Of a DNA stretch of 59,470 bases, positions 1-31,509 are shown piece after piece. The DNA is from a bacterium. GTDB taxonomy: Bacteria; Electryoneota; RPQS01. The stretch's first letter is position 1. The number at the start of each line of letters is the position of its first letter. Under the pieces are notes generated by a model. That model made no database searches, was not told the DNA's origin, and saw only the letters and a program-made list of their open reading frames with translations. Where the stretch lies: positions 1 to 59,470 of the forward strand of contig JAHJDG010000127.1 in NCBI GenBank assembly GCA_018812265.1, given 5' to 3'. The position numbers and the translations under genes were made by a program.

Positions 1-2980
1 CACCGCCGGAACCGCTGACGCGGACGCGTCCCACGTACACGCCGCTCTCGACTCCGCCCACGTCCCACATCACCTCGAACGGTTCGGGAATCGCCGACTG
101 ATGGCTTAGTCTGGCGATCAAGCGGCCCGCCAGGTCGAACACCTTGATCTCCGCGCGAGCGATGTAGCCCACGGTAATCCGAAAATGACTTATGTCGGAC
201 GTGGGGTTGGGCCAGCAGTACAGCCAATCGGCGCGCGTGGTCACGCGGGGATTGAACAAGGGAACATTAATGATCGCACGGGATTCCGTATAATGGAAGC
301 GACTGTCGCCGTGCGCGTCAAGCAAACGGATCGGCGAAAAATACAAATCATCTCCCACGGATGTGAGTCGCATTACGTACAAACTGCGGTCGTTCGTCCA
401 TTCGAACGGAGTATGACTCGATTCCACGCCGGAAACCGCCCATGGGAATCCCCTGAACGCGCCTCCGTTGTGCGATACGGCAATGACTCGCGTATATAGC
501 GAGGATTCACTCGTTGAATCGAAAACGGGAGCGTCCAGACCCATAATATCCGGATCTCCACTGGCATTTAGATCCAGCGTCCACGTCAGTGGAGCGCCAA
601 TCCTCGGCGCATCTTCGCGCTCTACGGCGTTGCGGCCCAACCAGCCTCCCCCGTCGGGTATCCCGTTGCCGTCCCAATCTATACCGGGCGGACCGCAACT
701 CGGATGCTCGCAGAGGGACGTTCCCGTCGCGGCATTGACATATCCCATTCCATCGAAGAACACGGCGGTTGTATCCGGTCGGACGACAACGAGTATCGAG
801 TGCGACAGTCGCTCGTCCGCGATGGACCAGAGCGAGTCCATCGTTGTATCGCCTACCGAATAGCATACGGCCAGACCGTCCGTCACGAAGACAAACCGAT
901 GAGCCGGAAAGCTCTCCAGATTGAAGACCGCAACACTGTCATCAGCAAGGAAAGGCAGATCACGTTCGCTCAACCGGACCAATTCCGCGTCGTATAAAGT
1001 CGCAACATAGTTTGAGCGGGTTCGCCAGACCAATAGTCCGCGGCCATCGGCGCTATCGGATTGCGCCGGAAATGCCCGCGACGACCATTCGGAAGTGATC
1101 TCCCACCGCACGCGGGGATCGGTTCCCGACCAGTCCACCAAGCCGATGTATGCTCCTTCCAGGAGGATCTCGTCGCGACCGTCTCCGTCAACATCCACCG
1201 GATCGGTTGAAGAGAGACCGACTCCAGCGGGGAGCGAAGCCACAACGGATAGCACACCCTGATGAGAAATCTGATACAGTGAATCGCGGAGAATGAAGTA
1301 GATCTCGCGGAGGCTGTCGCCGTCGAGGTCTGCCACCGTCCATTCTGAAAGATCGGGTACTTGCACCGGAAAGCCGTCGGCCACACCTTCCATCCGGCAG
1401 ACAAAACTCATGACGCTGTCCACCGCCGAGAAATTGGAGAGACGCAATCGCGTGTACGACCCGTCATAAATACGGGCGGCGGGGAAGGAGTAATCCGCAA
1501 ACAACTCGTAATTCGCGCCACGGTTGGCGGCACGGTGTTGCGAATTATTCAAGTACCATGCGTCTTCCTGAATGCCGAGTTCGGTTCCGGACCCCGCCGA
1601 CGCGAAGCCGTACTCGCGTCCGATGTCCTGTGCGCCATCCGCCTCGACAAGATCCACTCCTCGATGATCGGGGTCGGCATTGACGGTGTTGTCATCGAGT
1701 CCCCGCACGATGACGTCCTCATCAATGTGCCAGATGAGAAGTCCACTGCCGGGAATTCCGAAATCATAGTGACTCGCTCCCACGGCAACTCCGAATCCCG
1801 GTTGATACTCAATGCGGCGGTCCCGCGACAGCAGGAATCCTTCCCGTGCCTGCGTACGTTCCTCGTAGTAGACATGCATCACATGCAGGCTGTCGCGATC
1901 CCACAGCGTAACACACTTGACGGAATCCGCGTCGGCATCGCGATTCTCGATTACGTAGTACTCACGAGCTGTGACGGGAATCTTCACGATTTGAGCAACA
2001 TCTCCCCCCCGGCCGAAGCGAGCCACATGAAGCGTATCGCCACGTCCCGACGGAAGATGAACCGCAGCCGCTTGCCATTCCATGTACACACGAGACCAGG
2101 CCGTAGGAAGCGACGGGACCAACGCCGACATATTACCCGATCCCTGATCCATCATTCCCCATCGCCCGACTCCGCTGTGTCCGGTTCGCGTGTCAAACAA
2201 ATCGGGCAGACCGAGCCAGTTGCCAAACAGCTTCACCATAATGCCATTAAGCGAGAGTTCCACGTCATAATCAAGCGCTTCCCGCTGGTTTTCCCCCTCC
2301 GGAAGAATCAGCCCCCGCTCGACTCCGCCTGGAATCTGAATGCTGCCCGAATAGCTCTGGACATCCCGCGCTGAGATGTAGGCCGAGGGAATGTCGAACG
2401 GCGTAGGGTCATAACCAAGATTGAAGTCCTTGCCGACTCCCGCATGAAATACCAGAATGGCGTTGTAGCGAGTGAAATCCAATTCGGGATCTTCCGATGC
2501 TTTGGCGCATGACTCTATGAACAGTTCGACCAGCCGGCGGTTAAGCAGCTCCGCATCCGAGTTGTAGTTGTAATGCCACATCGGATAATCGAGCCGGTAG
2601 GCGGAGCCTTCAATTAGCGGGAATACATCCATCATCGTCGTATCGAAGACGACTCCGCCCCGCGAAACCGTCTCGTAGTAGTGTCGGAGGAAGCGCAGAT
2701 GATCGCGAAAGTATTCGCGGTCGTGCGGAAGCGGATCAATTACGAGAGAGGAATCGAATCCCGTGCCTATGCGGCCCGTGCCCGTCGTGCCTTCAATACT
2801 ATCTTCCTGGAACTCCACGAGAATGGCACAGACGCGAATCGGATCGCCGACCGGCCATCGCTCGGAGAGTGAACACGTTCGCCCACTCTGCAACGCCACC
2901 GCGCCCACGGACGCGGCGAGCGCCGGAAGAGCAAACGTAACGGCAAGTAAGCCGGCGAGTAGAGTTCCTCGGATCGTCAC
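1..2980 (-). CDS. Exported M6 (immune inhibitor A)-like pseudo-metalloprotease with FG-GAP-like repeats and a T9SS-type C-terminal domain; 3' end runs off the window; absent from the ORF track
   Basis: Manual translation from GTG at 2980 stays open to position 2 (~993 codons). Signal peptide MTIRGTLLAGLLAVTFALPALAA. M6-like motifs VFHAGVGKD, LGLPDLFDT, GRWGMMDQGSG, YYVIENR, GLLIWHIDE, DLVEADG. DxDGD repeats DLDGDSLREI and DVDGDGRDEIL. CTD: WPNP...IKVFDLAGRLIA...WDVGGVESGVYVGRV. Confidence 0.85.
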   Translation of the reverse strand, partial: MTIRGTLLAGLLAVTFALPALAASVGAVALQSGRTCSLSERWPVGDPIRVCAILVEFQEDSIEGTTGTGRIGTGFDSSLVIDPLPHDREYFRDHLRFLRHYYETVSRGGVVFDTTMMDVFPLIEGSAYRLDYPMWHYNYNSDAELLNRRLVELFIESCAKASEDPELDFTRYNAILVFHAGVGKDFNLGYDPTPFDIPSAYISARDVQSYSGSIQIPGGVERGLILPEGENQREALDYDVELSLNGIMVKLFGNWLGLPDLFDTRTGHSGVGRWGMMDQGSGNMSALVPSLPTAWSRVYMEWQAAAVHLPSGRGDTLHVARFGRGGDVAQIVKIPVTAREYYVIENRDADADSVKCVTLWDRDSLHVMHVYYEERTQAREGFLLSRDRRIEYQPGFGVAVGASHYDFGIPGSGLLIWHIDEDVIVRGLDDNTVNADPDHRGVDLVEADGAQDIGREYGFASAGSGTELGIQEDAWYLNNSQHRAANRGANYELFADYSFPAARIYDGSYTRLRLSNFSAVDSVMSFVCRMEGVADGFPVQVPDLSEWTVADLDGDSLREIYFILRDSLYQISHQGVLSVVASLPAGVGLSSTDPVDVDGDGRDEILLEGAYIGLVDWSGTDPRVRWEITSEWSSRAFPAQSDSADGRGLLVWRTRSNYVATLYDAELVRLSERDLPFLADDSVAVFNLESFPAHRFVFVTDGLAVCYSVGDTTMDSLWSIADERLSHSILVVVRPDTTAVFFDGMGYVNAATGTSLCEHPSCGPPGIDWDGNGIPDGGGWLGRNAVEREDAPRIGAPLTWTLDLNASGDPDIMGLDAPVFDSTSESSLYTRVIAVSHNGGAFRGFPWAVSGVESSHTPFEWTNDRSLYVMRLTSVGDDLYFSPIRLLDAHGDSRFHYTESRAIINVPLFNPRVTTRADWLYCWPNPTSDISHFRITVGYIARAEIKVFDLAGRLIARLSHQSAIPEPFEVMWDVGGVESGVYVGRVRVSGSGG

Positions 2981-2987
2981 CGGCCGC

Positions 2988-4034
2988 CTACAGATCCACC
3001 GACAAAGAATACCGCATCGTGTCGGTCAACGGGTGATTGGTTCCGGCCGTCAGATAGCTGAAATCGAAACGGTAGCTGCTGTACCGGAGCGAAACCCCAA
3101 AGGTATAGGGGAAGACCTTTCCGAGATCATCATTCCAGTATCCGGCGCGCAAACCCACGAGGGTCGAGTACCAATACTCGACTCCGACGTTCCAGATCAG
3201 CGACTTGACGAGGTCGCCGTCGCTCCAGGCCGTGAAGAGCGCTTCATAGAATTCATCGGAACGCCCTTTGTCGTCGCGTTTCACGAGCTCCTTGTTCACG
3301 TCGGAGGCGATAGTGAGCTGGTTGTATTCCTGATCAATGATCTTGTAGGCAAATCCCATCTTGAGATTGGTAGGCAACGGATCGGCCTGCGCCCGGTCAA
3401 TGTAGGCGACTTTCGGCCCCATGTTGGACAGGTTCGCACCCAGTGACAATCCCCTTAGGAAGGCTGCCCGATGGAGGATCCCGACGTCGGCGGCAATTGC
3501 CGTAGCCGTTCCGCTTCCCTTTTCCTCACCGGCTCCTTGATCCGATAAGTGGCTGTAGGCAAGTTTGAGTCCGACACCCATTGCAAGATGCGGATTGATT
3601 TCCGCGCCATAGGTTCCGGTCAGGGCGATTTCATAGGATGAGAAGGTGCCTTCATTGCGACCTTGTTCATCGGTGCGCTGCGTCTCGCCTAAATTGAGGA
3701 AGATGAGGTTGCCGCCGAAGGTTCCCCATTCGGGGACTTCATGCGTCGCGCTCATGTAGGCATAGTACAGATCGGACAGATTGAACTGCGGGAGCCAGCG
3801 GACGTACATCATAGTGAACTCCTGTCCATGCTGAAATCCCAAGCCAGCAGGATTCCACCAGGTTGCGCTGGCGTCGTCGGAAATGGCGACAAACGCCTCT
3901 CCCATTCCGGCCGGTCGCGCCCCGGGTGCGATTTTCAAGAACAGAAGCGTCGCCTGGCTGACGCTGGCAGCCTGCACAACGGCAGTGCACAGCAAGGCTC
4001 CCAGAATCAGCAGGCCTGTCACCGCTCGCTTCAT
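2988..4034 (-). CDS. porV: PorV/PorQ-family outer-membrane beta-barrel (T9SS shuttle-like)
   Basis: LFLKIAPGARPAGMGEAFVAISDDASATWWNPAGL N-terminal motif; signal peptide; GGAGG RBS before ATG at 4034 (the ORF track starts 10 codons early). Confidence 0.85.
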   Translation of the reverse strand: MKRAVTGLLILGALLCTAVVQAASVSQATLLFLKIAPGARPAGMGEAFVAISDDASATWWNPAGLGFQHGQEFTMMYVRWLPQFNLSDLYYAYMSATHEVPEWGTFGGNLIFLNLGETQRTDEQGRNEGTFSSYEIALTGTYGAEINPHLAMGVGLKLAYSHLSDQGAGEEKGSGTATAIAADVGILHRAAFLRGLSLGANLSNMGPKVAYIDRAQADPLPTNLKMGFAYKIIDQEYNQLTIASDVNKELVKRDDKGRSDEFYEALFTAWSDGDLVKSLIWNVGVEYWYSTLVGLRAGYWNDDLGKVFPYTFGVSLRYSSYRFDFSYLTAGTNHPLTDTMRYSLSVDL

Positions 4035-4070
4035 AGGTCCTCCAGTAGATGTATGTTCATTCACGAAAGT

Positions 4071-7000
4071 TCAGCGCAGAATCACGAGCTTGCCGGTACT
4101 CTCGGCGGAATAGCCACCCGCATGCTCCGCTTTGATCTTGTAGAAATAAACGCCGTTGGCGAGGAGATGCCCCTCGCGATCGCGGCCGTCCCACGGGCGA
4201 TCGGAATTGCTGTTGAAAGCGGGACCGGCCGTCCCCAGTCCGTCCATCTCATAGACCAGTTTTCCCGAGAGCGTGAAGAGGCGCAGACGCACGCGGCGTG
4301 TATTTTCCTGTGTCAGATAGTACGTGAAATAGGTGACGTCATTCATCGGATTCGGCCAGTTGTAGACGTCACGGATGGCATATCCGGCCTCACCGGCCGC
4401 TCCCACGGTGAAGGTGAGCGTGGTTTGGTTCAGGTTGTTGAACGAGTCCCAGGCTTCGACGGTCAGGCGATGTTCACCTTCGGCGAGCGGGCCAATTATT
4501 TTATCGAGGCTTCCCGACCTGTGGCTGTCGAGTTCGTAGTTGAAGAACGGCGTCAGGTCCTCGGTTTGCGCATCGTCAATCCGAACCGTGATCTTGTGCC
4601 CGACTTCGCCTGAAAGATTGACGCCCGAGGCATCCGTAATGGCAACATGAAGTTTGGGCGTCGCGCTGACCAAGTCTCCCGGGCGGAAGGAAGCCGTCTC
4701 CAGCCACACGCGGATCTCAGGGGCAATCGTGTCGGTTTCCGACGAGGCTTGAGCGGCAATCGGAATATGCTCGCGGATACCGATGCCATCGGCCGAGTCG
4801 GATTCGCTGTCGGCCTTGCCGAAAAAGTAGAGACTGATCTTGGCGTTATTTCCACCATAGCGAACATCGCGGGGAACCCGGAAGGTCACTGAGTCAAATC
4901 TGCCATTTTGAACCGTCGCCCGACCACGGAAGATGGCGTTGCCGGGAAGCCCGACGTAGTATGGTGGAAGATTGGTGTTGTCGCACCAGTAGTAGGCAAG
5001 TGAGTCCTCGGTATCGAATACTCGGACTTCCACCACGCCCTGGAAATCCGACCATACGGGTCCGCCGGAGGATCGGGACACCTCCCCACTTAAGGTAAAC
5101 AAGGACAAAGCGCGCAGAGAATCGTCGGCGACGGTGACCTGGGCGAAGTACTCGGGGGTAGCAAGCCGGAGCACCGGATCGCCAAATAAATGGTAGAGAT
5201 TCACATTGCTTACGCGGGTTGCCTTTCCGACCAGCAGGGCATGGCCGAAGCTCTGGCGCGAGGCCAGACCTTGGCGGAACAGCTCGCTGTAGAAGGCAAT
5301 GGTAAACGTATTGTTGGGTGCGATGTACGTGAATCGCGTTGCCGCGACACAGGCCACCGCGCCGTCTCGGGGATCGGCCAGCAGCTCTTCCGGAAAGCAG
5401 CGGACGAGCGGTTTGTCGAAAGCGCCCCACGAGCAGGTTGCGGCCAAGAACAACGGCCACATCCGATAGTTGTTGAGCAGATTGCGGTCACGTTCCATGA
5501 CAAACAGCTGTTCATCGGACCAAATCCGCTCGTTACCATGACCCGCGTAGTTAATGATCAGAGTCCCGCGGTTGATAGCTTCAATCAGATCCCGCGTCGC
5601 GTCCGGTTTGACCGGACCGACGGGCGTATGCTTCATCGGATAGAATATCTCATATAGTTTGTTGAATGTGAAGTACTCAGGCAGCACGTCGTTAATGAGA
5701 TTTTCAGCCTGTTGCGTGTGCTGAGTCTCGCTGCCGGACGTCCAGCAGGTGACTTTATTCTCATCATCAGCGGCAAAACTCGCCGTATTCTTCCACGGAC
5801 CGTAGAGCGGGTGGGTGGCATAGGCGATGGTCTTCGAGACTGCGGTTTCGACCTCTGCCCGGCTCTGGGAAGGCCAGCGTCCCGCCAACAGCCACGGCAA
5901 TTGAGAACTGTTGCTGAACAGAGTGAAGAAGTCGTCGGTGCTGTTCGAGTTCGATTCCCACGGCGGCATCCAGTTGGCGTCAGCACTGGACTCGATGTTT
6001 CGGTAGTCATAGTCGCCGTCCCCCACGAACAACACGTATTTCACGGTGTCGGTTCCGTCCGAGCCGTGCCAATTGAAATAGGCGTACTTCAGGAAATTGC
6101 GGATCGCCACCGGATCGCGGACGCCCCAGCCGAACTCATCGAAGACGTCGCCCAGACGAACACGGACGGCGGACAGAGGCTCCTCACGATAGGATTCATG
6201 GAACTGCTTTAGGGAATCAAGAGCATCGTACCACTCGTCGTAGGTAAGCAGAATGATGCCGGCCCCGTTCAGCGGATCGCGCAGTTGGGAATAATCCAAG
6301 TCCGGCAGAGTTTTCGCTCCCCGAAAGACGGGATTGCGAATGCGATCCGGATTCGACGCGAAGTAACGACGCGGTACACTCATATAGGAAGAATCAACCA
6401 GAGTACTTCCAATGGCGCGGCGAGGTTGAAGGGGATTGCTGACATCGAGAATGAGAGCATTTTCGTTCAAGCCGCTGATCACATAGCGGAATTGTCCGGT
6501 CAGAGTTCGCGGCGCGAAGAATTCCAGCATGCCGTTATTGGCCGTCAGATCCCGGTCGAACTCGATCTCGACATAGTTGACGTAGACGGTGGCGGCGCTG
6601 GAAGGAAGGGTCAGATTCTGCATCCGGACGATATTGGCTCCGGGCTGCAGAACTCCGGCAGGGATCGGAACGCTATAGGGCGCGGTCGTATAGTGAGCGC
6701 TGTCCACCAGAGTGCTGCCGACATAGACGTTGAAGTTCTGGCCGACGTATTCCCGTGAATCGAAATCGAGACGGAGGGTGCCGGCAGTGCCAAGGGCGCC
6801 CGGCAGATTCAGGGAAAAGGTCCGTTCCTGCTGCGCGCCAAACGACGCCATGAACCAAATGAGACCGGATTCCCGGTAATCACCCGGCGCCCGGATAAAG
6901 ATATCCTGATCAACGTATTCGCGTACCCGGGTTCGATTGATTGGCGTGCCGCCGCCGGCCGCGGTGATCGGCGGCATTCGGAGGCCGTCGGAACCCATCG

Positions 7001-7976
7001 GATCCACGCCGACGAAATAGACGTTCTCGGTGGAGAACGGACTATGATGTGCCAGCGCGTTCAGGTACGTTTCATCACAGTAGTCCGCGCCCTTCAGTCC
7101 GCGTCCGAAAAAGAGAATGCGGTCTTCGGCGTCGAATACGCCGTCGCCGTCCACGTCTTCCATATGGATCGCGTTTTCCTTCAATTCCTCATCCACGGGA
7201 GTATCGGGCGACGTCGGAAGCAACCGGCCGCCGTTACCAAAAAGCTTGATCTTCGCCGCCGGCTGACCCACCAGACCCGCACCCGCCAAGGAAGAACCGG
7301 TAACCTGATAGATACCCGTCTCCGTCACCGCCAGACGATAGAGGGCGAAAGTAGGCCAGGAGAAGTAATCATCAAACGCTGTTTGGCGCGGATACGGCTG
7401 CCACCACGTCGAGGCAGTCAAGCCGTTCACGGCAATCGCCGACAGAATATCCCCTTCGCGTCCCACCGGCGCGGTTGACGTCGGCGTGCCCTCAAAGAGT
7501 ACGGACAGATCGGCGGACTCGAGAATCTGTGAGCGGCGAGCGTCACCAATCTGCAGAAAAACCACCACTTGGGCAAGGCGGAAGCCCTTCCACTCCTCAG
7601 TACGCTCAAGTATCGCCCAGGAGTGTCCTACCTGTTTCGCCGCATCCCCGACCAGAACGGGAGTACCCGGCAGACCGCCGTCGGTATTCCTTGTTCGAAC
7701 CGCGCCAATACGGAGATGCGGAGTGGTTCCGGGAGGCACCACGACGTAGAATGCCCGAACCGGCTGAACGAACTTCTCGGCAATCCAATAGTCCGCGTCG
7801 TCCCATCCGGTCAGGATACCGTACGGATTGACCGTATCGGGAACCTGAAATGCCGGATCGCCCGGAGCATACGTCCAAGTGCACTCACGGCTATCGGAGC
7901 GGGCAACGTGCACACCCGCGAACGTCCAAGATGTCAGAAAGACCCCCGCCAGAGTGATGGCTATTATAACTCTCAT
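4071..7976 (-). CDS. porU: PorU-like C25 (gingipain-family) T9SS sortase with FlgD-Ig-type CTD
   Basis: 1301 aa; signal peptide; FDEFGWG-RDPVAIRNFLKY and LFVGDGDYDYR; catalytic dyad NYAGHG and AATCSWG intact; C-terminus YNWPNP...WDGRDREGHLLANGVYFYKIKA; directly upstream of porV. Confidence 0.85.
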   Translation of the reverse strand: MRVIIAITLAGVFLTSWTFAGVHVARSDSRECTWTYAPGDPAFQVPDTVNPYGILTGWDDADYWIAEKFVQPVRAFYVVVPPGTTPHLRIGAVRTRNTDGGLPGTPVLVGDAAKQVGHSWAILERTEEWKGFRLAQVVVFLQIGDARRSQILESADLSVLFEGTPTSTAPVGREGDILSAIAVNGLTASTWWQPYPRQTAFDDYFSWPTFALYRLAVTETGIYQVTGSSLAGAGLVGQPAAKIKLFGNGGRLLPTSPDTPVDEELKENAIHMEDVDGDGVFDAEDRILFFGRGLKGADYCDETYLNALAHHSPFSTENVYFVGVDPMGSDGLRMPPITAAGGGTPINRTRVREYVDQDIFIRAPGDYRESGLIWFMASFGAQQERTFSLNLPGALGTAGTLRLDFDSREYVGQNFNVYVGSTLVDSAHYTTAPYSVPIPAGVLQPGANIVRMQNLTLPSSAATVYVNYVEIEFDRDLTANNGMLEFFAPRTLTGQFRYVISGLNENALILDVSNPLQPRRAIGSTLVDSSYMSVPRRYFASNPDRIRNPVFRGAKTLPDLDYSQLRDPLNGAGIILLTYDEWYDALDSLKQFHESYREEPLSAVRVRLGDVFDEFGWGVRDPVAIRNFLKYAYFNWHGSDGTDTVKYVLFVGDGDYDYRNIESSADANWMPPWESNSNSTDDFFTLFSNSSQLPWLLAGRWPSQSRAEVETAVSKTIAYATHPLYGPWKNTASFAADDENKVTCWTSGSETQHTQQAENLINDVLPEYFTFNKLYEIFYPMKHTPVGPVKPDATRDLIEAINRGTLIINYAGHGNERIWSDEQLFVMERDRNLLNNYRMWPLFLAATCSWGAFDKPLVRCFPEELLADPRDGAVACVAATRFTYIAPNNTFTIAFYSELFRQGLASRQSFGHALLVGKATRVSNVNLYHLFGDPVLRLATPEYFAQVTVADDSLRALSLFTLSGEVSRSSGGPVWSDFQGVVEVRVFDTEDSLAYYWCDNTNLPPYYVGLPGNAIFRGRATVQNGRFDSVTFRVPRDVRYGGNNAKISLYFFGKADSESDSADGIGIREHIPIAAQASSETDTIAPEIRVWLETASFRPGDLVSATPKLHVAITDASGVNLSGEVGHKITVRIDDAQTEDLTPFFNYELDSHRSGSLDKIIGPLAEGEHRLTVEAWDSFNNLNQTTLTFTVGAAGEAGYAIRDVYNWPNPMNDVTYFTYYLTQENTRRVRLRLFTLSGKLVYEMDGLGTAGPAFNSNSDRPWDGRDREGHLLANGVYFYKIKAEHAGGYSAESTGKLVILR

Positions 7977-8292: not shown

Positions 8293-9516
8293 TCAGCCAA
8301 ATAGGGTATTGATGTGGACAGGGTCAGATGCATTTCTAAGTACCAAGTACTCCTCCGAAGTCGGAGCCTCATCCTCGTTGGCCTGACCTTCAGCCGGGAA
8401 ATCGCCGCGGTTTTCCAATGACAGGATGAACGCCCCGACACACAACGGACAGAATTGGGTGCCTGACCCCGAGCGGAGTTCCTGCGCCGCCTCAGACGTG
8501 CTCATGGCCTTCCGGTATGCACGATGCGAACGCATGGCATCGAAAGCGTCTGCCACGGCAAGAATTCGGCCTTCCAGACTGATTTGGGTGCCCCGTAGGC
8601 CGTTGGGATAGCCACTGCCGTTGAAGCGCTCGTGGTGTTCGCGGACGATCCGCCGAATCTGAGTCAGAAACGGCAGTGATTTGAGGATATTATCGGTCAG
8701 AAAAATGTGGGATGCCATGATCCGGTGTTCATCAGGCAACAACGGACCGGGTTTGTTCAGGATCTGATCCGGCACGCCGATCTTGCCGAGGTCATGGAGG
8801 ACGCTGGCAAATCTCAGATCATGACGAGCCTCGTCGGAGAGACCCAGCACGTCGGCCATCAGAGAACAATAATAGAAGACCCGATCGCTGTGGCCTTTGG
8901 TGTAGGGATCTTTGGCCTCAACCGCCGCCGTCAGGGAGGTTACCATGTCCAAGTAGGCATTCTGTAATTCGGCCGACAGCGTTTCGATGCAGGCCTTTTG
9001 CTTCTCGACGGTCAGTTCCTCGCTGCGGATGCGGTCCCGGGCAGCCTGCAGCGAACGTTCCATCTCGGTGGCGGCAAGCTTCAGGCGGCGATTGTAGTCG
9101 AGAACGTCCTTGCGCAGATGGTCATGTTCGCAGAGCGATTCATAGTGCTCCAGCGCGCGGCGAATCGTAGAGACCAATGCCGCCAGATCCAGAGGTTTCG
9201 TGACAAACTTATATACGTTCCCTCGATTGATCGCTTCAACGGCCACGTTCAAGTCGGGGAGACCGGTCATGAGAATGGACACGATGCGTCGTCCGGAGCC
9301 CTGCATCTCCGCCAGCAGATCCACACCGCAACCGTCGGGCAGGTTGTGATCCGACAACACGACTCGGAAGGAGTGAACGGTCAATTCGGCCCGTGCCGCG
9401 GCAACCGTTTCTGCCGTCCGCAACGTGAAGCCTTCATCGGCCAACGTCTCGCGGAGAAGCTGCAGAACCGATGGATCGTCCTCGATGATTAGCAGATCGT
9501 GATCGTTATTGTCCAT
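8293..9516 (-). CDS. Response regulator receiver + coiled coil + HD-GYP cyclic dinucleotide phosphodiesterase
   Basis: REC domain (LLIIEDD, SDHNLPD, FVTKP); HDLGKIG and HHERFNGSGYP motifs; start placed at MDNND (9516). Confidence 0.9.
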   Translation of the reverse strand: MDNNDHDLLIIEDDPSVLQLLRETLADEGFTLRTAETVAAARAELTVHSFRVVLSDHNLPDGCGVDLLAEMQGSGRRIVSILMTGLPDLNVAVEAINRGNVYKFVTKPLDLAALVSTIRRALEHYESLCEHDHLRKDVLDYNRRLKLAATEMERSLQAARDRIRSEELTVEKQKACIETLSAELQNAYLDMVTSLTAAVEAKDPYTKGHSDRVFYYCSLMADVLGLSDEARHDLRFASVLHDLGKIGVPDQILNKPGPLLPDEHRIMASHIFLTDNILKSLPFLTQIRRIVREHHERFNGSGYPNGLRGTQISLEGRILAVADAFDAMRSHRAYRKAMSTSEAAQELRSGSGTQFCPLCVGAFILSLENRGDFPAEGQANEDEAPTSEEYLVLRNASDPVHINTLFG

Positions 9517-9613
9517 GCGCCCTTGACAAGCGGATACGCCGTCGTGAAGTCTGAACCGCGTAGAATCAACCGCTATAAGTGCGGCAAATACGGGGCCATG
9601 ATCCGTTGCGGGT

Positions 9614-10366
9614 CTACGACTGCAACTCGCCAATTGCGCGCAGAAAGACATCCTCCAGATCCGCTTGGTCGGTTTGCCGGCGCAGTTCATCGGGCGTACC
9701 CGAAGCACATACTCGTCCGCGATGGAGAATGATAAGGCGGTCACAGAGCTTCTCGGCCTCGCGCATCACGTGAGTCGAGAAAATAACGCACCGGCCGCGT
9801 CTGCGCGAGTCGTGAATGAATCGCACGATCTGCGCCGAGGCCAGGATGTCCAAACCTGACGTAGGCTCGTCGAAGATCAACACCGGCGGGTCATGCACAA
9901 TCGTTCGCGCGATGCTGACCCGCTGTTTCTGACCGCTGGAAAGTTTGTCACAGCGACGGGTGAGAAAATCCCCCATATCGAGCTGCTCGGAAATCTGCGA
10001 AAGGCGGGCGGCAATGGTCGGTTCCGAAAGCCCGTGCAAGCGTCCGAAATACTCGATCATCTCGCCGGCCGTGAGGCGACCATAGACTCCCGTATCCGAC
10101 GACAGGAATCCGATGGCGGAACGAACACGGTCCGGTTCGCTCCGCACGCTGTGGCCGGCGATCAATGCATCACCGCCCGTCGGTTTCAGTACCGTGGAAA
10201 GGATGCGGAGCGTGGTTGTTTTGCCCGCTCCATTGGTGCCCAGAACTCCAAAGACCTCGCCCGCCTGGGCATCGAAACACACGTCCATGCTCGCGCGTAC
10301 GATCTGTCCACCCGAATCGTGATAGTCTTTCGATAGACCTCGTACCGAGACCGCCACATTACTCAT
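9614..10366 (-). CDS. ABC transporter ATP-binding protein, NatA-like
   Basis: Walker A GTNGAGKTT, signature LSSGQKQR, Walker B LIFDEPT, H-loop STH; ATG at 10366 follows the GWxTD stop by 1 nt. Confidence 0.85.
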   Translation of the reverse strand: MSNVAVSVRGLSKDYHDSGGQIVRASMDVCFDAQAGEVFGVLGTNGAGKTTTLRILSTVLKPTGGDALIAGHSVRSEPDRVRSAIGFLSSDTGVYGRLTAGEMIEYFGRLHGLSEPTIAARLSQISEQLDMGDFLTRRCDKLSSGQKQRVSIARTIVHDPPVLIFDEPTSGLDILASAQIVRFIHDSRRRGRCVIFSTHVMREAEKLCDRLIILHRGRVCASGTPDELRRQTDQADLEDVFLRAIGELQS

Positions 10367-10367
10367 A

Positions 10368-11789
10368 TTATCGTCCCGGTGAGAACGGTCCGCTTGGGGA
10401 GAGCGTTTGATCGCGGGTTCGGAGTCGCTGTTCCCAGTTCGGATTGTAGATCTCGCCGCGTTTCGTGCTGTGAACGAGGTCAAGATCGCCAAAACCCTGA
10501 CGGTCCGCGAAGACGAAGAACACACCCCCTTCAAGCTGATCGTAGCCCCAGATCTCATGGTCAATGGTCTGCGGCATGGCGTAGTTGTTCTCCACGCGAT
10601 CCGGTTCGCCGTACAACACGAACACTCGACCTCGATCCGTCTTCCATCCCGGCCTTTGGAGATAGCTGTAGCGCCGGTTGGCTTCGACGATTCGGGCGAA
10701 ATAGCGGTTGCCGGCGCCGGGATCATCGCGTTCGCGTTTTTCCCAGAATTCCCTTATGAATTGCCGTTTTCCCTCGGGAGTCAGACGCCGAAGCCGGCGA
10801 TATTCATCTCGCGTAAGGATGTAGCGCATCCATCGCTCGGCACTGTCGGCATTCACGACCTCGAGGAAGTTCGGATCCACTTCCGCCAGGCGTGATCCGA
10901 ACTCGGGTTGATTCTGCAGATTCCTTCCGGCGGCAAGGTCTGCCGCCCGATACGTCCAGAATTTCTTGCGCATCGTGGCCGAGCGGCCGGATCGCAGCGA
11001 GATCACCGTCAGTTCGAGATAGTACGTTCCCGTCCGCAGAGTCGCCGTCGGAAAACCGTCTACGATAACGACCGAACTTCCGGTCGTCGGGCGAACCCCG
11101 GTCTGTTCGGGACGAACCGGCGCACCGGTTTCGGCGTCCAGCACCTTCCGAACAACCACGTGTGAATCCGCGCGTTGAGAATCGTAGTCCAATTCGTATG
11201 CTTCGGCGTAGAAATACAGAACCGGAATCTGCGTTCCATAGAATCCGGTCGCATTGGGTATCATGCGTACGCCGTGTTTCACAAACACCGATCCGTCGTC
11301 GGTATAGCTCAACTCAGTGCCGAGTTCGATTTGAGAAACGGACAAATCGCCGGTAGGCTGCGGCACCCGCAGGGAACAGGCGGCCGTCGCGACCGGCTGC
11401 GGATCCCAATGAAGCAGATGAGCCCGCAGAGCATAGCTCCCGGGCTTCATGATCAGGCGAAAGACGTGAGGATAGAAACTGCCTTGACCGTCTATCGGCT
11501 CGGTCTCGGTGCGAGCGTCCAGAGCGTGAAACGTGTCGGAGAGCACCACGTTCCCCGCTTGAAGCACGTCCAGCGAAACCTTGAACTCGGCAATCAAACT
11601 GTCGCCAACGACCTTGTAGCGAAGTCCGGCCTGTTGAACGGCGGTGTACACCTCAACGTAGCCGAGGGAATCGGCAGCACGGAAAGAGGCACAGTCCAGG
11701 TCCAGCGTGTAGTCGGCGCGGAGGGAGAAGGTCCCGATCAAGAGCGCCAACGCACAGGAAATCGAAAGGAAAGCGTCACGCATCGTCAC
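10368..11789 (-). CDS. Exported GWxTD domain protein
   Basis: Signal peptide; FWEKRE...YFARIVEANRRY...GWKTDRGRVFVLYGEP motif near the C-terminus. Confidence 0.85.
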   Translation of the reverse strand: MTMRDAFLSISCALALLIGTFSLRADYTLDLDCASFRAADSLGYVEVYTAVQQAGLRYKVVGDSLIAEFKVSLDVLQAGNVVLSDTFHALDARTETEPIDGQGSFYPHVFRLIMKPGSYALRAHLLHWDPQPVATAACSLRVPQPTGDLSVSQIELGTELSYTDDGSVFVKHGVRMIPNATGFYGTQIPVLYFYAEAYELDYDSQRADSHVVVRKVLDAETGAPVRPEQTGVRPTTGSSVVIVDGFPTATLRTGTYYLELTVISLRSGRSATMRKKFWTYRAADLAAGRNLQNQPEFGSRLAEVDPNFLEVVNADSAERWMRYILTRDEYRRLRRLTPEGKRQFIREFWEKRERDDPGAGNRYFARIVEANRRYSYLQRPGWKTDRGRVFVLYGEPDRVENNYAMPQTIDHEIWGYDQLEGGVFFVFADRQGFGDLDLVHSTKRGEIYNPNWEQRLRTRDQTLSPSGPFSPGR

Positions 11790-11810
11790 GTCCTTTCCGG
11801 ATTGACGAGA

Positions 11811-14800
11811 TCAAGCTACCGAGGAGAGCAACCGGACGGAGACCAGTTTGGAAATGCCTTCTTCCTCCATCGTGACCCCATAGAGGTTGTCGGCAATCTC
11901 CATGGTGCGCCGGTTGTGAGTTACAAGAATGAATTGCGTGTTTTCGCTGTGGGACCGGATCATCCGCGTGAAACGGTCAATATTCGCGTCGTCGAGCGGA
12001 GCGTCAACCTCATCGAATACGCAGAAGGGAGACGGCTTCACTTGATAGAGAGCGAACAAGAGAGCGTTCGCCGTCATGGTCTTTTCTCCGCCCGACATCA
12101 GCGAGAGCGATTTCAGCCGTTTGCCGGATGGATTAGCCCAAATCGTGATATCCGCCTCCAGCAGATCGGTTCCACTGAGAATCAAGTCCGCTTCCCCCGC
12201 CGGGAAAAATTCCTGGAAAAGCCGCTGGAAATGGCCGCGCACGGCTTCGAAGGTATGGAGGAACTGCGCCTGTGCCTTCTCGTTGATCCGCGCAATCGTA
12301 TCCTCGAGCGTTCGCTTCGCCTTGAGCAAGTCATCGCGTTGGGCAAGCATCATCTCCAAACGGGCGTTTTCCGTGGCATATTCCTCCACCGCCAGAGAGT
12401 TGATAGGTCCCAATCGTTCGATTTTCTGTTTCAACTCCTGAACGGATTCCGGCGAAGCATCAGCCTCGACAAGGTCGGGGTGAATATCTTCAAAATTCTC
12501 GTCCGCCAGATCAAGATTCCATTGTGCGCGGGCGCTGTTCACCACGGCGGCCAGCTCACCGCGCATTCGGGCAACTTCCGTCTCGATCCGGCGGCCTCCT
12601 TCCAGCTCACCGGCGTGGCTCTCGCGGAGATCCCGGAGCCGCTGCTCTTCCTCCGAGATGCGACCGCGAATCTCATCGAGCCGAACAGCCATCTTATCCA
12701 CGGCAGTCGCGCGCTCGTCCCTGAGCCGATACTTCTCAATCGAGAGCGCGTCAATCTCCTTCAGGCGGTTTTCAAACGTGACCAGCTCGTTGGCGGCCTG
12801 TTCAGCCGACTCATCGGCTTTCCTCAGGTTCGCTTCCATCTCGTGGATATCTTGTTCGAGACGCTCCTTTTCCGCTTGAGACAACTCCACCTTGTGATGG
12901 ATCGCATCCCGTTCTCGTTCAAACCCATGGAGCGTTTCACGATCCGCTATCGCCTGTCGCTGCACTTCGGAAAACGCATCCCCCACGGCGCGGCCGATCT
13001 GTTCGATGCCGTGCAGCTCCGTCTCCGCCGCGTGAACCGCTACCTCGGCTTCCCTCGATTGACGGTCACAATCGGTAATTTCTCGCGCCAGCGTCTCAAT
13101 TCTGGTTTGCGCGGATTGCTCGCGTTCTCCGAGTGCCGTCAAACGCGTCTCCCACTCCACCTGCTGTTCGCGGAGCGTTGTCCGCGCAACCAAAAGATGC
13201 GCGGTCTCACGTGAAAGTTCATCGAGTGTTCGTTTGACTTGATCCAACTTGTCACGCTGAGCCGCGGCGCGTGCGCCGACCGTTTCGCGTTCCCGCTCCG
13301 CCTCAACCAGACTCTGCTCGATCTCTTCAACTTGTTTCCGGAGTCCAATGTCGGCCGGTACGTCGGATTCTTCCGATCCGCCGTGCAGCAGACCCGTGTT
13401 GCCGATCCACTCCCCACCGAGCGTTATCAGCGTGCAGCGGTTGGTCTTTGCCCATTCTCCATATTCGAGCGCCGATTGCCAGTCGCGCACCAGAATGACG
13501 CGTCCCAGAAAATGCTCGAGGATCGAACTGCGGGTGTTTCCCTTAATCACCGACAACGCCGTTCCGATTGTACCCTCAGGCGGCACGACGGCCATTGAGG
13601 GCTCGACACGAAACGCGTCCATGGCCAGAAAAGTGGTTTGGCCGGCGTTCTCTCGTCGGAGCATCGCCATGGCAATCAGCGCCGCTTGGGTGGATTCGAC
13701 GAGGAAATAGTAGGCGGCCGGACCGAGCGCCACCTGCAGTGCGCGGCGATAGGGCTCCTCGACTTCGATGGTATCCCCCAGAATATCCAGCGCACCCTCG
13801 ATCGGATTTGTGCGCAACGCTCGCAGCGCGCTATGGGAGCGCGGTCCCTTCTCCTCCAACGTGGCCAGCAGGCGGAGACGCGCGCGGCCCGCCTCTATCA
13901 AACCTGCCAGTTGTCTATCCACTTCTTCAAGACGTCTGATCTCCTGCTCGACGGCGGTGCGTTCAGCCTGCGCAAGCGCCGTCTCCGATTCCTTGGCGCT
14001 TAGTTTCTCGCGCGCGGCGTCCGCCTGCACGGCCAGTTCAGCCAGTCGCGTTCTCAGTTCCTCGCACTCACCGCTCATGGAAACCAGTTCACCGGCAAGC
14101 AATTCCTTACGGCTTACAAATCCCGCATGAGATATCGCAAGACGTGCGGTCTCTTCGCGACACTGCGCGAATCGCCGTCTTAACACGTCAACCTTGTCGG
14201 AATGCTCCGCGGCAGCGGTCTCTGCGTCCCGCAACTTCCGCTCGCTCTCACTCAACCGCGCTTTCGCTTCACTTACCCTTCGCTCCGCTTCATCAAGTTC
14301 CGCTCGCACGGCGGCGAGATTCTCCTGGACGCCGGATAGCCTCACTTCGATCAGGCTGCGTTTGTCGGCAAGCAGCTGGCGTTCACGACGAGTACGCTCG
14401 ATCGTTTGACGAGCCGCTTGATCCCTGGCCCGCAAACCGGCTTCTTCCGCCTCCATGCCCGAGATCTGAGCCACAACTTCCGATAAGCTCCGGCGAAGCT
14501 CCGTGGCTTCTTTCTCGGCGTCGGTCTCAGAGCGTCGCAGTTCCAGCAGGCGAGCTTCTTCGAGTCGAATGGCGCTCTGAGCGCTATCGGTGGCGACGGA
14601 TGACTTGCTGAGGGCTTCTTCCAGCGGACGCAGATCCGCCTTGATCCGCCGATACTCTCGATAGATCAGAGCGGTTTCGGTCAGCCGGAGTTGCGCCGCA
14701 AACTCTCCATAGCGACGCGCTCGCATGGCTTGTCGCTTGAGGGACGCGACCTGCCGTTCGACTTCGGTCAGAACATCGGCCAGTCGCGCCAGATCCTCCT

Positions 14801-15353
14801 CGGTTTGCTTCAACTTGAGCAGAGCTTGCCGGCGGCGGATTTTATACTTGGCGACACCGGCGGCCTCCTCGAACAACATCCGTCGTCCTTCACCGTCCTC
14901 CCGAAGGATGTCTTCCACCATCTTGAGTTCGAGGATGGTGTATAGATTCGGTCCCATTCCGCTGTCGTGGAGCAGATCGGTGATGTCACGGAGTCTGCAT
15001 ACGTTTCCGTTGAGAAGGTACTCGCTGGTACCGTCGCGAAAAAGACGGCGGGCGATCTCGACCTCGGTGAACGGAGTGTCGAGCAAACCTTGACTATTAT
15101 CCAGAACGATTTTGACCTCGGCGGCGCCGGCCGGCTTGCGAATGACCGTCCCGTTGAAAATAACGTTCTCCATCCGTTCCCCGCGGAGCACGGAGGATCG
15201 CTGCTCGCCAAGCACCCAACGAAGAGCGTCCACGATATTCGACTTGCCGCAACCGTTCGGACCGACAACGGCGGTTACGCCGGGCGCAAAATCCAGAGTC
15301 GTCGTCTTCGCAAACGACTTGAAACCGGTAATGTTGAGGGAAAGCAGTTGCAT
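11811..15353 (-). CDS. smc: Chromosome segregation protein SMC
   Basis: GFKSF, GPNGCGKSN, long coiled coils with a hinge, MSGGEK, FDEVDAPLD; 1180 aa. Confidence 0.97.
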   Translation of the reverse strand: MQLLSLNITGFKSFAKTTTLDFAPGVTAVVGPNGCGKSNIVDALRWVLGEQRSSVLRGERMENVIFNGTVIRKPAGAAEVKIVLDNSQGLLDTPFTEVEIARRLFRDGTSEYLLNGNVCRLRDITDLLHDSGMGPNLYTILELKMVEDILREDGEGRRMLFEEAAGVAKYKIRRRQALLKLKQTEEDLARLADVLTEVERQVASLKRQAMRARRYGEFAAQLRLTETALIYREYRRIKADLRPLEEALSKSSVATDSAQSAIRLEEARLLELRRSETDAEKEATELRRSLSEVVAQISGMEAEEAGLRARDQAARQTIERTRRERQLLADKRSLIEVRLSGVQENLAAVRAELDEAERRVSEAKARLSESERKLRDAETAAAEHSDKVDVLRRRFAQCREETARLAISHAGFVSRKELLAGELVSMSGECEELRTRLAELAVQADAAREKLSAKESETALAQAERTAVEQEIRRLEEVDRQLAGLIEAGRARLRLLATLEEKGPRSHSALRALRTNPIEGALDILGDTIEVEEPYRRALQVALGPAAYYFLVESTQAALIAMAMLRRENAGQTTFLAMDAFRVEPSMAVVPPEGTIGTALSVIKGNTRSSILEHFLGRVILVRDWQSALEYGEWAKTNRCTLITLGGEWIGNTGLLHGGSEESDVPADIGLRKQVEEIEQSLVEAERERETVGARAAAQRDKLDQVKRTLDELSRETAHLLVARTTLREQQVEWETRLTALGEREQSAQTRIETLAREITDCDRQSREAEVAVHAAETELHGIEQIGRAVGDAFSEVQRQAIADRETLHGFERERDAIHHKVELSQAEKERLEQDIHEMEANLRKADESAEQAANELVTFENRLKEIDALSIEKYRLRDERATAVDKMAVRLDEIRGRISEEEQRLRDLRESHAGELEGGRRIETEVARMRGELAAVVNSARAQWNLDLADENFEDIHPDLVEADASPESVQELKQKIERLGPINSLAVEEYATENARLEMMLAQRDDLLKAKRTLEDTIARINEKAQAQFLHTFEAVRGHFQRLFQEFFPAGEADLILSGTDLLEADITIWANPSGKRLKSLSLMSGGEKTMTANALLFALYQVKPSPFCVFDEVDAPLDDANIDRFTRMIRSHSENTQFILVTHNRRTMEIADNLYGVTMEEEGISKLVSVRLLSSVA

Positions 15354-29514: not shown

Positions 29515-31509
29515 TTAGCCGTCGGTGGTACGCAGCTCACGCAACTCCTTTTCCCTGCGTACTTCCAGTTCCTCAAGCCGAAGCGCCGCCTGCTCCCAGA
29601 GCTCGATGAGAGAGGGCAATTCCTTCCGAATCCGATCATATTCCGCCATCAGCGACCGGCACCGTTCCGGGTCCCGATAGAGACTCTCATCGGCAAGTAC
29701 GGGTTCGATCTCAAGCTTACGGGACTCGTGGCGATCAATGTTTCGTTGAATCTTCTCCAGTTCCTTGCGCGCTTGTCGGATTCCCTCGGAGTGGCGGTTT
29801 CTCACGTCCGCTTCGAGGCGCTTACGTTCCCGTTTCTGATATCGTCCATCGGGAACCGGTTGCTCGGTTGCTTCGTGGAGACGACCTTCCCCCGATTGCA
29901 GAGCGTCTCCCGCCAAACCCTTCCGCTCGAGGTACTCCGACAAGCTCCCCGGATAATCCTGCAATCGTCCACCTTCCAACTCCATAATCCGTTCCACCAA
30001 ACGGTCAAGGAAATACCGATCGTGACTGACAACGATCAGGGTTCCGTCATACTCCTTGAGGGCACTCAGCAGCACGTCCTGTGAAGTCATGTCCAGATGA
30101 TTCGTCGGCTCATCAAGAATCAGCAGATTGGCCGGACGGAGAAGCATCTTGGCCAGGGCCAACCGAGCCTTCTCGCCGCCCGACAGAACCGATACTTTCT
30201 TGAGAACGTCGTCGCCGGAAAAGAGAAACGCGCCCAGAAGCTTCCGGAGTTCATTCTGGGTCGGTCCGTGCGATTCGGATTCCATCTCCTCAAGCACGGT
30301 GCGGCGGGGATCAAGGTGGAAGTCGGCTTCCTGAGCGAAATAATTAACCTCCACGTTGTGCCCGAGCTTGACGCTGCCGCCGGTCGGTTGCTCAATACCC
30401 GTAATCAGCCGGCAGAGCGTGGACTTGCCGGCCCCGTTGACGCCGACCAGAGCGACCTTCTGACCTCGCGCAAGCACCAGGTCCAGTTCGCTGAACACCG
30501 GAATGGAACCGTAGTGGTGATGCAGGCCGATGAATTCGAGAACGATTCGGCCGCTGGGCGGCGCGGGTGGAAAACGAAACCGAACTTGGCGGGCTGAACT
30601 GCTCAGCCTGACCTGTCCGAGTTTTTCGAGGGTCTTAATCCGGCTTTGTACTTGACTGGCCTTGGTCGCCTTGTATCGGAATCGTTCGACGAATCGCTCG
30701 ATCCGCTTGCGTTCGTCCGCGATTCGAGCCGCCTCCGCCTCCAACTGCTCCTCCCGCAGCGCGCGCGCCTTCTCGTAGGCCGAGTAATTCCCCTCGTAGA
30801 GGATCAGTTCCCCGTGGTCAATCTCGGCGATACCATCCGTAACGCTGTTCAGGAAACGGCGGTCATGGCTGACGACGATCAGCGCGCCATCGTAGCGAGT
30901 CAGATAGCCTTCCAACCACAACAGGGCGGGCAAGTCAAGATGATTCGTCGGTTCGTCGAGTAGGAGGAGATCGGGATCTTGCAGAAGAAGCTTGGCCAGA
31001 GCGATGCGCATCTGCCAGCCGCCGGAAAACTCTTCCACGCGACGTCCGTGGTCGGTATCGCGAAAGCCTAATCCCTTCAGCACCCGAGCCACTTTCGCTT
31101 CCGCCCGATAGCCCTCGAGATCCTCCCACCGGTGTTGAACCACGCCCAAACGTTCGATCAAATCCACGTCATCGGGAGTCCGGTCGAGTCTTCCGTGAAG
31201 CTCGGAAAGTTCAGATTCGAGTCGCGGCAAGTCCGGAAGACCGTTCCAGGCTTCGGCGAACAGCGTTCGACCGGAGTGAGTTACTCCTTCTTGAGGAAGA
31301 TATCCGGCGGCAAGATCGCGGGTTCGCTCCACCCGGCCGTCCGTAGGCTCAGTGACACCGAGCATGATCCTGAGTAGGGTGGTTTTGCCCGCTCCATTGG
31401 GACCGATGAGTCCGAATCGTTGACGCCGGAAGATGGACCACGACAGGGGTTTCAGCAGTATCTTCCCCGGTAAAACAAGGGCGACTTCATGAAGATGCAG
31501 CAGCCTCAT
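29515..31509 (-). CDS. ABC-F family ATP-binding protein
   Basis: Two ABC domains (GPNGAGKTT, FSGGWQMR, LLDEPTNHLD; GVNGAGKST, LSGGEK), no TM segments, C-terminal coiled coil. Confidence 0.93.
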   Translation of the reverse strand: MRLLHLHEVALVLPGKILLKPLSWSIFRRQRFGLIGPNGAGKTTLLRIMLGVTEPTDGRVERTRDLAAGYLPQEGVTHSGRTLFAEAWNGLPDLPRLESELSELHGRLDRTPDDVDLIERLGVVQHRWEDLEGYRAEAKVARVLKGLGFRDTDHGRRVEEFSGGWQMRIALAKLLLQDPDLLLLDEPTNHLDLPALLWLEGYLTRYDGALIVVSHDRRFLNSVTDGIAEIDHGELILYEGNYSAYEKARALREEQLEAEAARIADERKRIERFVERFRYKATKASQVQSRIKTLEKLGQVRLSSSARQVRFRFPPAPPSGRIVLEFIGLHHHYGSIPVFSELDLVLARGQKVALVGVNGAGKSTLCRLITGIEQPTGGSVKLGHNVEVNYFAQEADFHLDPRRTVLEEMESESHGPTQNELRKLLGAFLFSGDDVLKKVSVLSGGEKARLALAKMLLRPANLLILDEPTNHLDMTSQDVLLSALKEYDGTLIVVSHDRYFLDRLVERIMELEGGRLQDYPGSLSEYLERKGLAGDALQSGEGRLHEATEQPVPDGRYQKRERKRLEADVRNRHSEGIRQARKELEKIQRNIDRHESRKLEIEPVLADESLYRDPERCRSLMAEYDRIRKELPSLIELWEQAALRLEELEVRREKELRELRTTDG

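Follow-up and report, generated by a model that had tools for sequence, protein, structure and literature searches.

A porV-adjacent M6-like protease scaffold without its zinc site, a candidate surface component of type IX sorting in a bacterium of the Electryoneota lineage

The stretch of DNA described here (the window; 59,470 nucleotides (nt) of contig JAHJDG010000127.1, from a bacterium of the GTDB lineage Electryoneota) opens with a gene that is missing from the list of its open reading frames (ORFs). This gene, termed M6i, encodes an M6-like metalloprotease with a degenerate zinc site and is the last visible gene of a same-strand cluster that also holds the genes of PorU and PorV, two type IX secretion system (T9SS) components. 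Translation of positions 1-2980 in six frames yielded a single open frame, which lies on the minus strand, a detail absent from the original prediction. It starts at the GTG at 2980, the first start codon past an in-frame TGA stop at 3026-3028, and continues without a stop for 993 codons down to window position 2, where it exits the left edge. An unlisted gene of about 990 codons had been predicted here and is indeed present; the proposed reason for its absence from the list is also right, as ORFs running off the end of the sequence are omitted. Judged from the length of the nearest full-length ortholog (locus L001, 54% identity), about 12 residues and the stop codon lie beyond the edge. With the nearest ortholog this distant, synonymous sites are saturated. 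A gap of 7 nt separates the porV stop from the M6i start. The cluster and the features within M6i (aa, amino acid; CTD, C-terminal domain) are as follows.

4071..7976, minus strand: PorU, sortase of the T9SS (C25 peptidase), at the head of the cluster (NF033707 654 bits, cutoff 420; Peptidase_C25 260.9 bits)
2988..4064, minus strand: PorV-family outer-membrane beta-barrel gene (NF033709 PorV_fam 284.8 bits, cutoff 90; PF19572)
1..2980, minus strand: M6i, M6-like inactivated metalloprotease gene (open frame; NF052323 E 3.6e-119, 399 bits; length of the L001 ortholog)
2915..2980, minus strand: probable Sec signal peptide, aa 1-22, VTIRGTLLAGLLAVTFALPALA/AS (read from the sequence by eye)
1361..2863, minus strand: M6 (InhA-like) peptidase-fold unit, aa ~40-540, a degenerate catalytic domain with attached beta domains (NF052323, TIGR03296, AlphaFold2, Foldseek)
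2198..2236, minus strand: degenerate zinc motif VKLFGNWLGLPDL, aa 249-261 (motif alignment, InhA alignment, column entropy)
2138..2158, minus strand: GMMDQGS, aa 275-281, aligned with the LMS segment of InhA (M277 near-invariant, D278 a family-specific near-invariant Asp)
266..1360, minus strand: FG-GAP-type beta-propeller region, aa ~541-905 (FG-GAP_3, AlphaFold2 model, Foldseek, profile matches)
2..229, minus strand: probable T9SS type A C-terminal sorting domain, aa ~918-993, truncated at the window edge (PF18962, TIGR04183, profile, BLASTP)

In M6i a probable Sec signal peptide is thus followed by an InhA-like peptidase-fold unit, then by an FG-GAP beta-propeller and finally by what is probably a T9SS type A CTD. 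The N-terminus VTIRGTLLAGLLAVTFALPALA/AS is a probable signal peptide, and the AlphaFold2 model places a helix at aa 6-17, followed by a stretch of low predicted local distance difference test (pLDDT) score. The M6-like domain of the original prediction is recovered at a level well above chance. The NCBIfam model NF052323 aligns with aa 40-529 (E 3.6e-119 for the whole match), TIGR03296 aligns with aa 91-349 (E 6e-14, 52.6 bits, under its curated cutoff of 110.8), and a structural search finds the InhA2 fold. Pfam gives sub-threshold matches alone (FG-GAP_3, Por_Secre_tail and Peptidase_M6), of which PF05547 Peptidase_M6 scores 17.8 bits, under the cutoff of 22. With 71 family sequences as input, AlphaFold2 modelled the full-length protein at a pLDDT of 88.4 and a predicted template modelling (pTM) score of 0.85, and the model of aa 35-540 alone reaches 91.7 and 0.93, respectively. 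When this domain model was compared with the PDB by Foldseek, the sole significant fold match was 4yu5_B, the zymogen of Bacillus anthracis InhA2 (E 1.6e-12, probability 1.00, query TM-score (TMq) 0.54), the next having an E value of 0.16. Structure prediction, proposed earlier as a check of the domain, therefore gives the InhA2 fold. At the sequence level the family profile is needed for this link: it reaches the InhA sequence with E 5e-8, and phmmer with the M6-like domain as a single query sequence matched nothing among PDB sequences. Foldseek with the full-length model returned mostly eukaryotic beta-propellers and was uninformative on the peptidase unit. On the domain model, the N-terminal half of M6i has the InhA-type M6 fold.

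The FG-GAP repeats that had been read after the M6 unit are likewise present and the CTD probably so, both with scores below the curated cutoffs. FG-GAP_3 matches aa 551-606 (E 5e-5, 24.2 bits against a cutoff of 26.9). The whole of aa 540-905 is modelled as all-beta, mostly with pLDDT above 85, and a terminal beta-sandwich follows. The top Foldseek matches of the region are beta-propellers, including the FG-GAP protein ITFG2, and profile matches include 6mlt and integrin alpha-V. For the CTD, PF18962 Por_Secre_tail matches aa 923-986 with 19.7 bits (cutoff 27) and TIGR04183 gives 17 bits (cutoff 23), partly because the window edge cuts the domain; the complete CTD of the L001 ortholog scores 24.4 bits. 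The CTD of M6i is also similar to that of PorU in the same window (BLASTP E 7e-9), its profile matches the PorZ CTD 5m11 (E 2.9e-4) and the CTD chain 8glj_D, and most homologs of M6i carry PF18962.

The motif HEXXHXXGXXD is the zinc-binding and catalytic motif of the M6 family, which is placed in subclan MA(M) (PMC3890501). At this place M6i reads KLFGNWLGLPD, in which the Gly and the Asp alone remain. Aligned with InhA (4yu5, HAFGHDLGLPDEYDT), K250, L251 and N254 take the places of His, Glu and His, and D260 that of the third-ligand Asp; the deposited chain of 4yu5 reads A at the Glu position of HAFGHDLGLPDEYDT. In the family profile the same InhA segment aligns with the pattern xxFGxxLGLPxLFxT. 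The replacement of both His and the Glu, originally placed at about 2198-2248, is therefore confirmed with an exact span of 2198-2236. Other M6 motifs said to be kept were all found, namely FHAG at aa 178, GMMDQGS at aa 275, ENR at aa 345 and GLLIWHIDE at aa 413. LGLPD at aa 256, likewise said to be kept, is kept in this clade only: across the family its Asp ligand is variable, with D in 87 of 298 sequences. M6i shares with InhA (MEROPS M6; 4yu5/4yu6; PF05547, TIGR03296) the fold and the elements FHAGxG, GxxLGLPD, the Met of LM(S/D), ENR, LIWHID and EADG. It differs from InhA in having other residues in place of the His-Glu-His triad, an unconstrained Asp ligand, an FG-GAP propeller and, probably, a T9SS CTD. 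InhA comes from Bacillus, whereas M6i belongs to an organism of the Fibrobacterota-Chlorobiota-Bacteroidota (FCB) superphylum with an outer membrane.

The loss of the zinc site is a feature of the family. A word-indexed search found 174 homologs of M6i, and an exhaustive search found 544 clusters (at 50% identity) with E<=1e-30 and 3615 with E<=1e-3. An initial alignment already showed almost all homologs to be without HExxH. The zinc motif could be located in 301 relatives, and column entropies were taken from 300 near-full-length sequences. His-Glu-His is kept in only three of the 301 (P0103, P0115 and P0116), which are the most distant matches. The replacement triplets are diverse, with L-M-F in 60 relatives, K-L-N in 28 (the clade of the window), L-L-S in 17, A-S-S in 15, H-Q-H in 10 and dozens of others besides. 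The columns that once held the catalytic or ligand residues, four in all, rank with the most variable of the family: entropy is 2.72 bits at column 250 (first His), 2.36 at column 251 (Glu), 2.45 at column 254 (second His) and 2.75 at column 260 (Asp ligand). L, M and F are the commonest residues at the former site, and the second His is retained in about 22% of members. The surrounding scaffold columns are nearly fixed, with entropies in bits of 0.03 for G246, 0.47 for G253, 0.33 for G257, 0.62 for P259, 0.32 for L261, 0.03 for G272, 0.10 for M277 and 0.08 for D278. About 60 other columns of the peptidase unit are at least 90% conserved, nearly all of them common to the HExxH-keeping relatives. 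On these alignments, the zinc site was lost long ago and has drifted since, the Asp ligand being likewise unconstrained, and the scaffold is under strong purifying selection. The earlier proposal of a non-catalytic scaffold under structural selection stands to the extent that the site is gone and about 60 columns are this strongly conserved.

These data also bear on the possibility of a pseudogene in the making, that is, an active protease that has decayed recently in this strain alone. The missing motif itself, and nothing more, speaks for such decay. The frame is open over 993 codons; moreover, the presence of HExxH in orthologs had been named as the point to check, and its loss is family-wide. 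Since 298 of the 301 relatives, across phyla, lack the zinc site and the scaffold is conserved, recent decay limited to this strain is excluded. This reading is regarded as refuted by the motif alignment, the count of three His-Glu-His relatives and the column entropies.

A second possibility is that M6i is still a hydrolase that works through other residues, for example D278 together with a conserved His or Glu. M277 and D278 are each present in 297 of 300 family sequences, and D278 is the one clear family-specific residue, the column holding Gly in the HExxH-keeping P0103 and P0116 and Ser in InhA. H179, H418, E340, E345, E446 and D448 are near-invariant as well, and the retention of the second His by about a fifth of members and of both His by a few points the same way. 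However, the conserved His, Glu and Asp residues other than D278 are equally conserved in the HExxH-keepers and look structural, the old site is mostly L, M or F, and NCBI curators label the family inactivated. Residual activity is accordingly considered very improbable. An HQxxH motif, with both His kept and Glu changed to Gln, was observed in P0120 (Candidatus Syntrophosphaera), in P0065 and in about 10 of the 301 relatives. Judged by this motif, such proteins could be in an intermediate state, metal-binding yet catalytically dead.

The relatives that keep HExxH offer a view of the probable earlier state. P0103 and P0116 match M6i in length, in their FG-GAP and CTD architecture and in the scaffold residues, at 30-33% identity. 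Unlike M6i, they keep HEFGH or HEMLH, have Gly in place of D278 and are followed by different genes, of 218-222 aa and 390-555 aa. Both are probably examples of the state in which the protease was still active. A 24-residue fragment upstream of P0116 ends in ...NTKFSLDVQF, and PorV C-termini end in ...NTMRFSLxxxF; on the basis of these 24 residues only, P0116 appears to follow a PorV-like gene, which suggests that the ancestor of M6i was an active, PorV-linked M6 peptidase. For P0115 (candidate division TA06, L082/L083), which keeps HEFGH, the genes directly preceding it encode Omp85 and TamB and not PorV. Therefore, PorV linkage is not universal among the active relatives.

The protein has a curated counterpart in NCBIfam. 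NF052323.1 (T9SSA_dep_M6i, 'T9SS-dependent M6-like inactivated metalloprotease') matches M6i in two stretches, aa 40-529 and the CTD, with 399.3 bits against a curated cutoff of 600. The cutoff is missed because the propeller half does not align with the model; the roughly 12 missing C-terminal residues cannot explain a gap of 399 versus 600 bits. Among porV-adjacent genes, scores above the cutoff were obtained for Bacteroidota L068 (874 bits), Ignavibacteriales L046 (803), KSB1 L008 (659) and Calditrichia L016 (606). Scores below it were obtained for Zixibacteria L033 (566), L070 (556), L004 of the window's clade (437), Delongbacteria L054 (413) and Marinimicrobia L061 (401), close to the 399 of M6i. 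NF052323 proteins resemble M6i in their N-terminal M6-like unit without HExxH, their size of about 1000 aa and, probably, their terminal type A CTD, and members above the cutoff occupy the same porV-adjacent slot. M6i thus shares its genomic slot with established members, synteny being a criterion of the present analysis and not of NCBI. Owing to the same slot and the same domain order, M6i is an ortholog of NF052323 members. It is a divergent member of a family already named by NCBIfam and not a new kind of protein. A literature search found no paper on the NF052323 family, its synteny or its function; it is known as a curated name.

The association with porV is conserved far beyond this organism. 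A scan of one genome per species gave more than 526 relatives of M6i, of which 80 loci on 80 different contigs were retained. They come from metagenome-assembled genomes (MAGs) labelled KSB1, Calditrichia, Marinimicrobia/Neomarinimicrobiota, Ignavibacteria, Zixibacteria, Delongbacteria and Bacteroidota. In 70 of the 71 loci whose upstream sequence is long enough, the gene immediately before M6i on the same strand encodes a PorV homolog, and in the 71st (L039) PorV overlaps M6i by 64 nt. The association with PorV and PorU noted originally is therefore real and conserved, with PorV adjacency in all 71 informative loci. PorU precedes PorV in 21 of the 80 loci, including those of the window's clade, Ignavibacteria and Bacteroidota, and not in KSB1 or Marinimicrobia loci. 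The adjacent genes at related loci are canonical PorU (980-996 bits) and PorV. The consecutive numbering of NF052323-5 had raised the idea that M6i belongs to a paralogous PorU2/PorV2 system; with canonical neighbours, this idea was ruled out. L001 (CAYUIF010000033.1) and L003 (CAZGVT010000156.1), the closest relatives, carry the full PorU-PorV-M6i cluster and derive from MAGs titled 'uncultured Alphaproteobacteria bacterium'. These labels look wrong, as the cluster is typical of the FCB superphylum.

This fixed position is the point on which the simplest alternative can be weighed, namely that M6i is ordinary T9SS cargo, an adhesin or ligand scavenger on a dead protease scaffold that is encoded next to porV for co-expression and has no role in sorting. 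The probable signal peptide, functional domains and probable type A CTD of M6i form the standard cargo architecture, FG-GAP propellers are common in adhesins (as in the integrin and 6mlt matches), and a further likely CTD-bearing cargo is encoded in the window at 31506-33263. For mere cargo, however, a fixed position would be unexpected, and here PorV adjoins in 71 of 71 loci and the same downstream gene in 65 of 67, in many phyla and on 80 contigs. The cargo reading is thus held to be unlikely, though it is the strongest of the rivals; partnership with the downstream peptidase follows it, then residual activity and finally the refuted recent decay.

The downstream gene encodes about 1000-1050 aa. 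Of 67 informative loci, 65 have it directly after M6i, and its start often overlaps the stop of M6i. Its product has a signal peptide, a Peptidase_MA_2-like region, a PD40/TolB-type propeller and, at the C-terminus, an Omp85-type barrel. All 10 members examined have an intact V-[IV]-T-H-E-[FY]-x-H motif, and Peptidase_MA_2, PD40 and Omp85 matches exceed the Pfam cutoffs in several. No dedicated NCBIfam family matches this gene. Its positions in five relatives are as follows.

L001:12988-16074
L004:12904-16011
L008:13054-16104
L061:12665-15607
L068:12987-16136

In the window the corresponding region lies beyond the left edge. L001 shares with the window the whole block of SMC, GWxTD, ABC, response regulator-HD, PorU, PorV and M6i; thus, judging by synteny, the downstream gene very probably sits just left of position 1 here too. 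Two irregularities were observed among the relatives. In L025 an extra 409-aa ORF without a family match (L025:13081-14310) separates M6i from the downstream gene. The loci L059 and L076 ('uncultured Bacteroidota') are without the downstream gene, and the C-terminus of their PorV is different (...SQFYSIGxxF).

A neighbour with an intact motif makes it conceivable that M6i is the pseudoenzyme partner of this live HExxH peptidase, for which it would recruit substrate or which it would regulate or anchor, PorV merely delivering M6i. The adjoining position in 65 of 67 loci, with frequent stop/start overlap, the intact motif in all 10 members and the Pfam-level matches are in favour of such a pairing. 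Nevertheless, the gene itself is outside the window, the two peptidase domains are not close paralogs and PorV adjacency is at least as strict. A role of this kind is therefore given only a low probability.

The best characterized system for comparison is that of Porphyromonas gingivalis, where the barrels PorV and PorQ hold PorU and PorZ, both CTD-bearing surface proteins; PorZ is made up of propellers and an uncleaved CTD and passes the anchor glycolipid to PorU (PMC8545088, PMC12365241). M6i resembles PorZ as a probably CTD-bearing protein predicted for the surface, with beta-propeller binding domains, encoded with PorU and PorV as PorZ functions with them. The PorZ CTD (5m11) is the best PDB match of the M6i family CTD, at profile positions 805-903. 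Furthermore, PorZ is held on the PorQ barrel and relatives of M6i have a barrel-containing protein encoded next door. The differences are nonetheless substantial: PorZ has two seven-bladed propellers and no peptidase-like domain, whereas M6i has one propeller and a peptidase-like unit, and the neighbouring barrel is of Omp85 type with an HExxH domain, not of PorQ/PorV type. As only the CTD is shared, the likeness to PorZ is an analogy and not membership.

Taken together, we consider it somewhat favoured that M6i is a dead descendant of an InhA-type protease, exported by the T9SS, which acts as a surface binding subunit coupled to PorV/PorU sorting. M6i would be co-transcribed with porU and porV and exported by the T9SS to the cell surface. 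There it would be non-enzymatic, with the old substrate cleft and the propeller serving as binding surfaces, and it would be coupled, physically or functionally, to the sorting step of PorV and PorU. Together with the HExxH/PD40/Omp85-barrel protein, it may be analogous, not homologous, to PorZ-PorQ beside PorU-PorV. We infer the loss of catalysis, the surface location, the binding and the partnership with PorV, PorU or the downstream protein, and the proposed function, including the peptide binding, adhesion and presentation of cargo to PorU suggested in the original prediction, is read from synteny and architecture.

Several points weigh against this role in sorting. A gene neighbourhood is no proof of a role in the machinery, and PorU adjacency is found in 21 of the 80 loci only. 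M6i falls below the NF052323 cutoff with its propeller half unaligned to the model, its CTD scores are under the curated cutoffs, it matches PorZ in the CTD alone, and the downstream partner gene lies outside the window. In a bolder version, the porU-porV-M6i-X operon (X being the downstream gene), which would encode two surface proteins and two barrel-containing proteins, might be the core T9SS sorting operon of FCB lineages outside the well-studied Bacteroidia. M6i and X would then make up the other half of the attachment complex, as the functional counterpart of PorZ-PorQ, and the cleft would hold the C-terminal linker of cargo or the anchor molecule for PorU; this version is doubtful.

Upstream of porU, the block shared with L001 (window 8293-15353, minus strand) is also syntenic in L002, L004 and L070. 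It comprises the following genes.

11811-15353, minus strand: SMC
10368-11789, minus strand: GWxTD-domain protein
9614-10726, minus strand: ABC ATPase
8293-9744, minus strand: response regulator with HD domain

The ORF calls of the ABC ATPase and the response regulator overlap by 131 nt, and the domain matches of the regulator begin at about aa 77-84; its true start thus probably lies later than the ORF call. Elsewhere in the window, the 585-aa ORF at 31506-33263 (minus strand) contains Lamin Tail Domain repeats and a CHU_C-type T9SS C-terminal signal, and is likely another T9SS cargo. Across positions 1-59470, the minus strand carries the long ORFs with family matches, as well as most of the longest ORFs listed. 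Among them are PorU/PorV/M6i, SMC, GatB, a GatA-like amidase, ABC-F and ComEC, and further a TPR protein, a GH2 glycosidase, ribosomal protein S1 and a TonB-dependent receptor. The guanine-cytosine (GC) content is even (0.56-0.59), and 10 of the 11 5-kb bins have a negative GC skew. An Rfam scan of the window gave no RNA match.

What is new here is how widely and strictly the porV-M6i-X synteny holds, how far the zinc site has drifted in numerical terms, the family-specific Asp that follows the Met, and the clades missed by the curated cutoff. The NF052323 cutoff misses whole syntenic clades, namely the window's clade, Marinimicrobia and Delongbacteria, whose proteins are now annotated as hypothetical or merely as 'T9SS sorting domain-containing'. 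The attachment step of the T9SS has been worked out almost wholly in Porphyromonas and Flavobacterium. Being large and locked to porV across many uncultured FCB phyla, the M6i family is a candidate accessory component of type IX sorting. Moreover, it offers a clean natural case of a protease scaffold repurposed once its metal site was lost.

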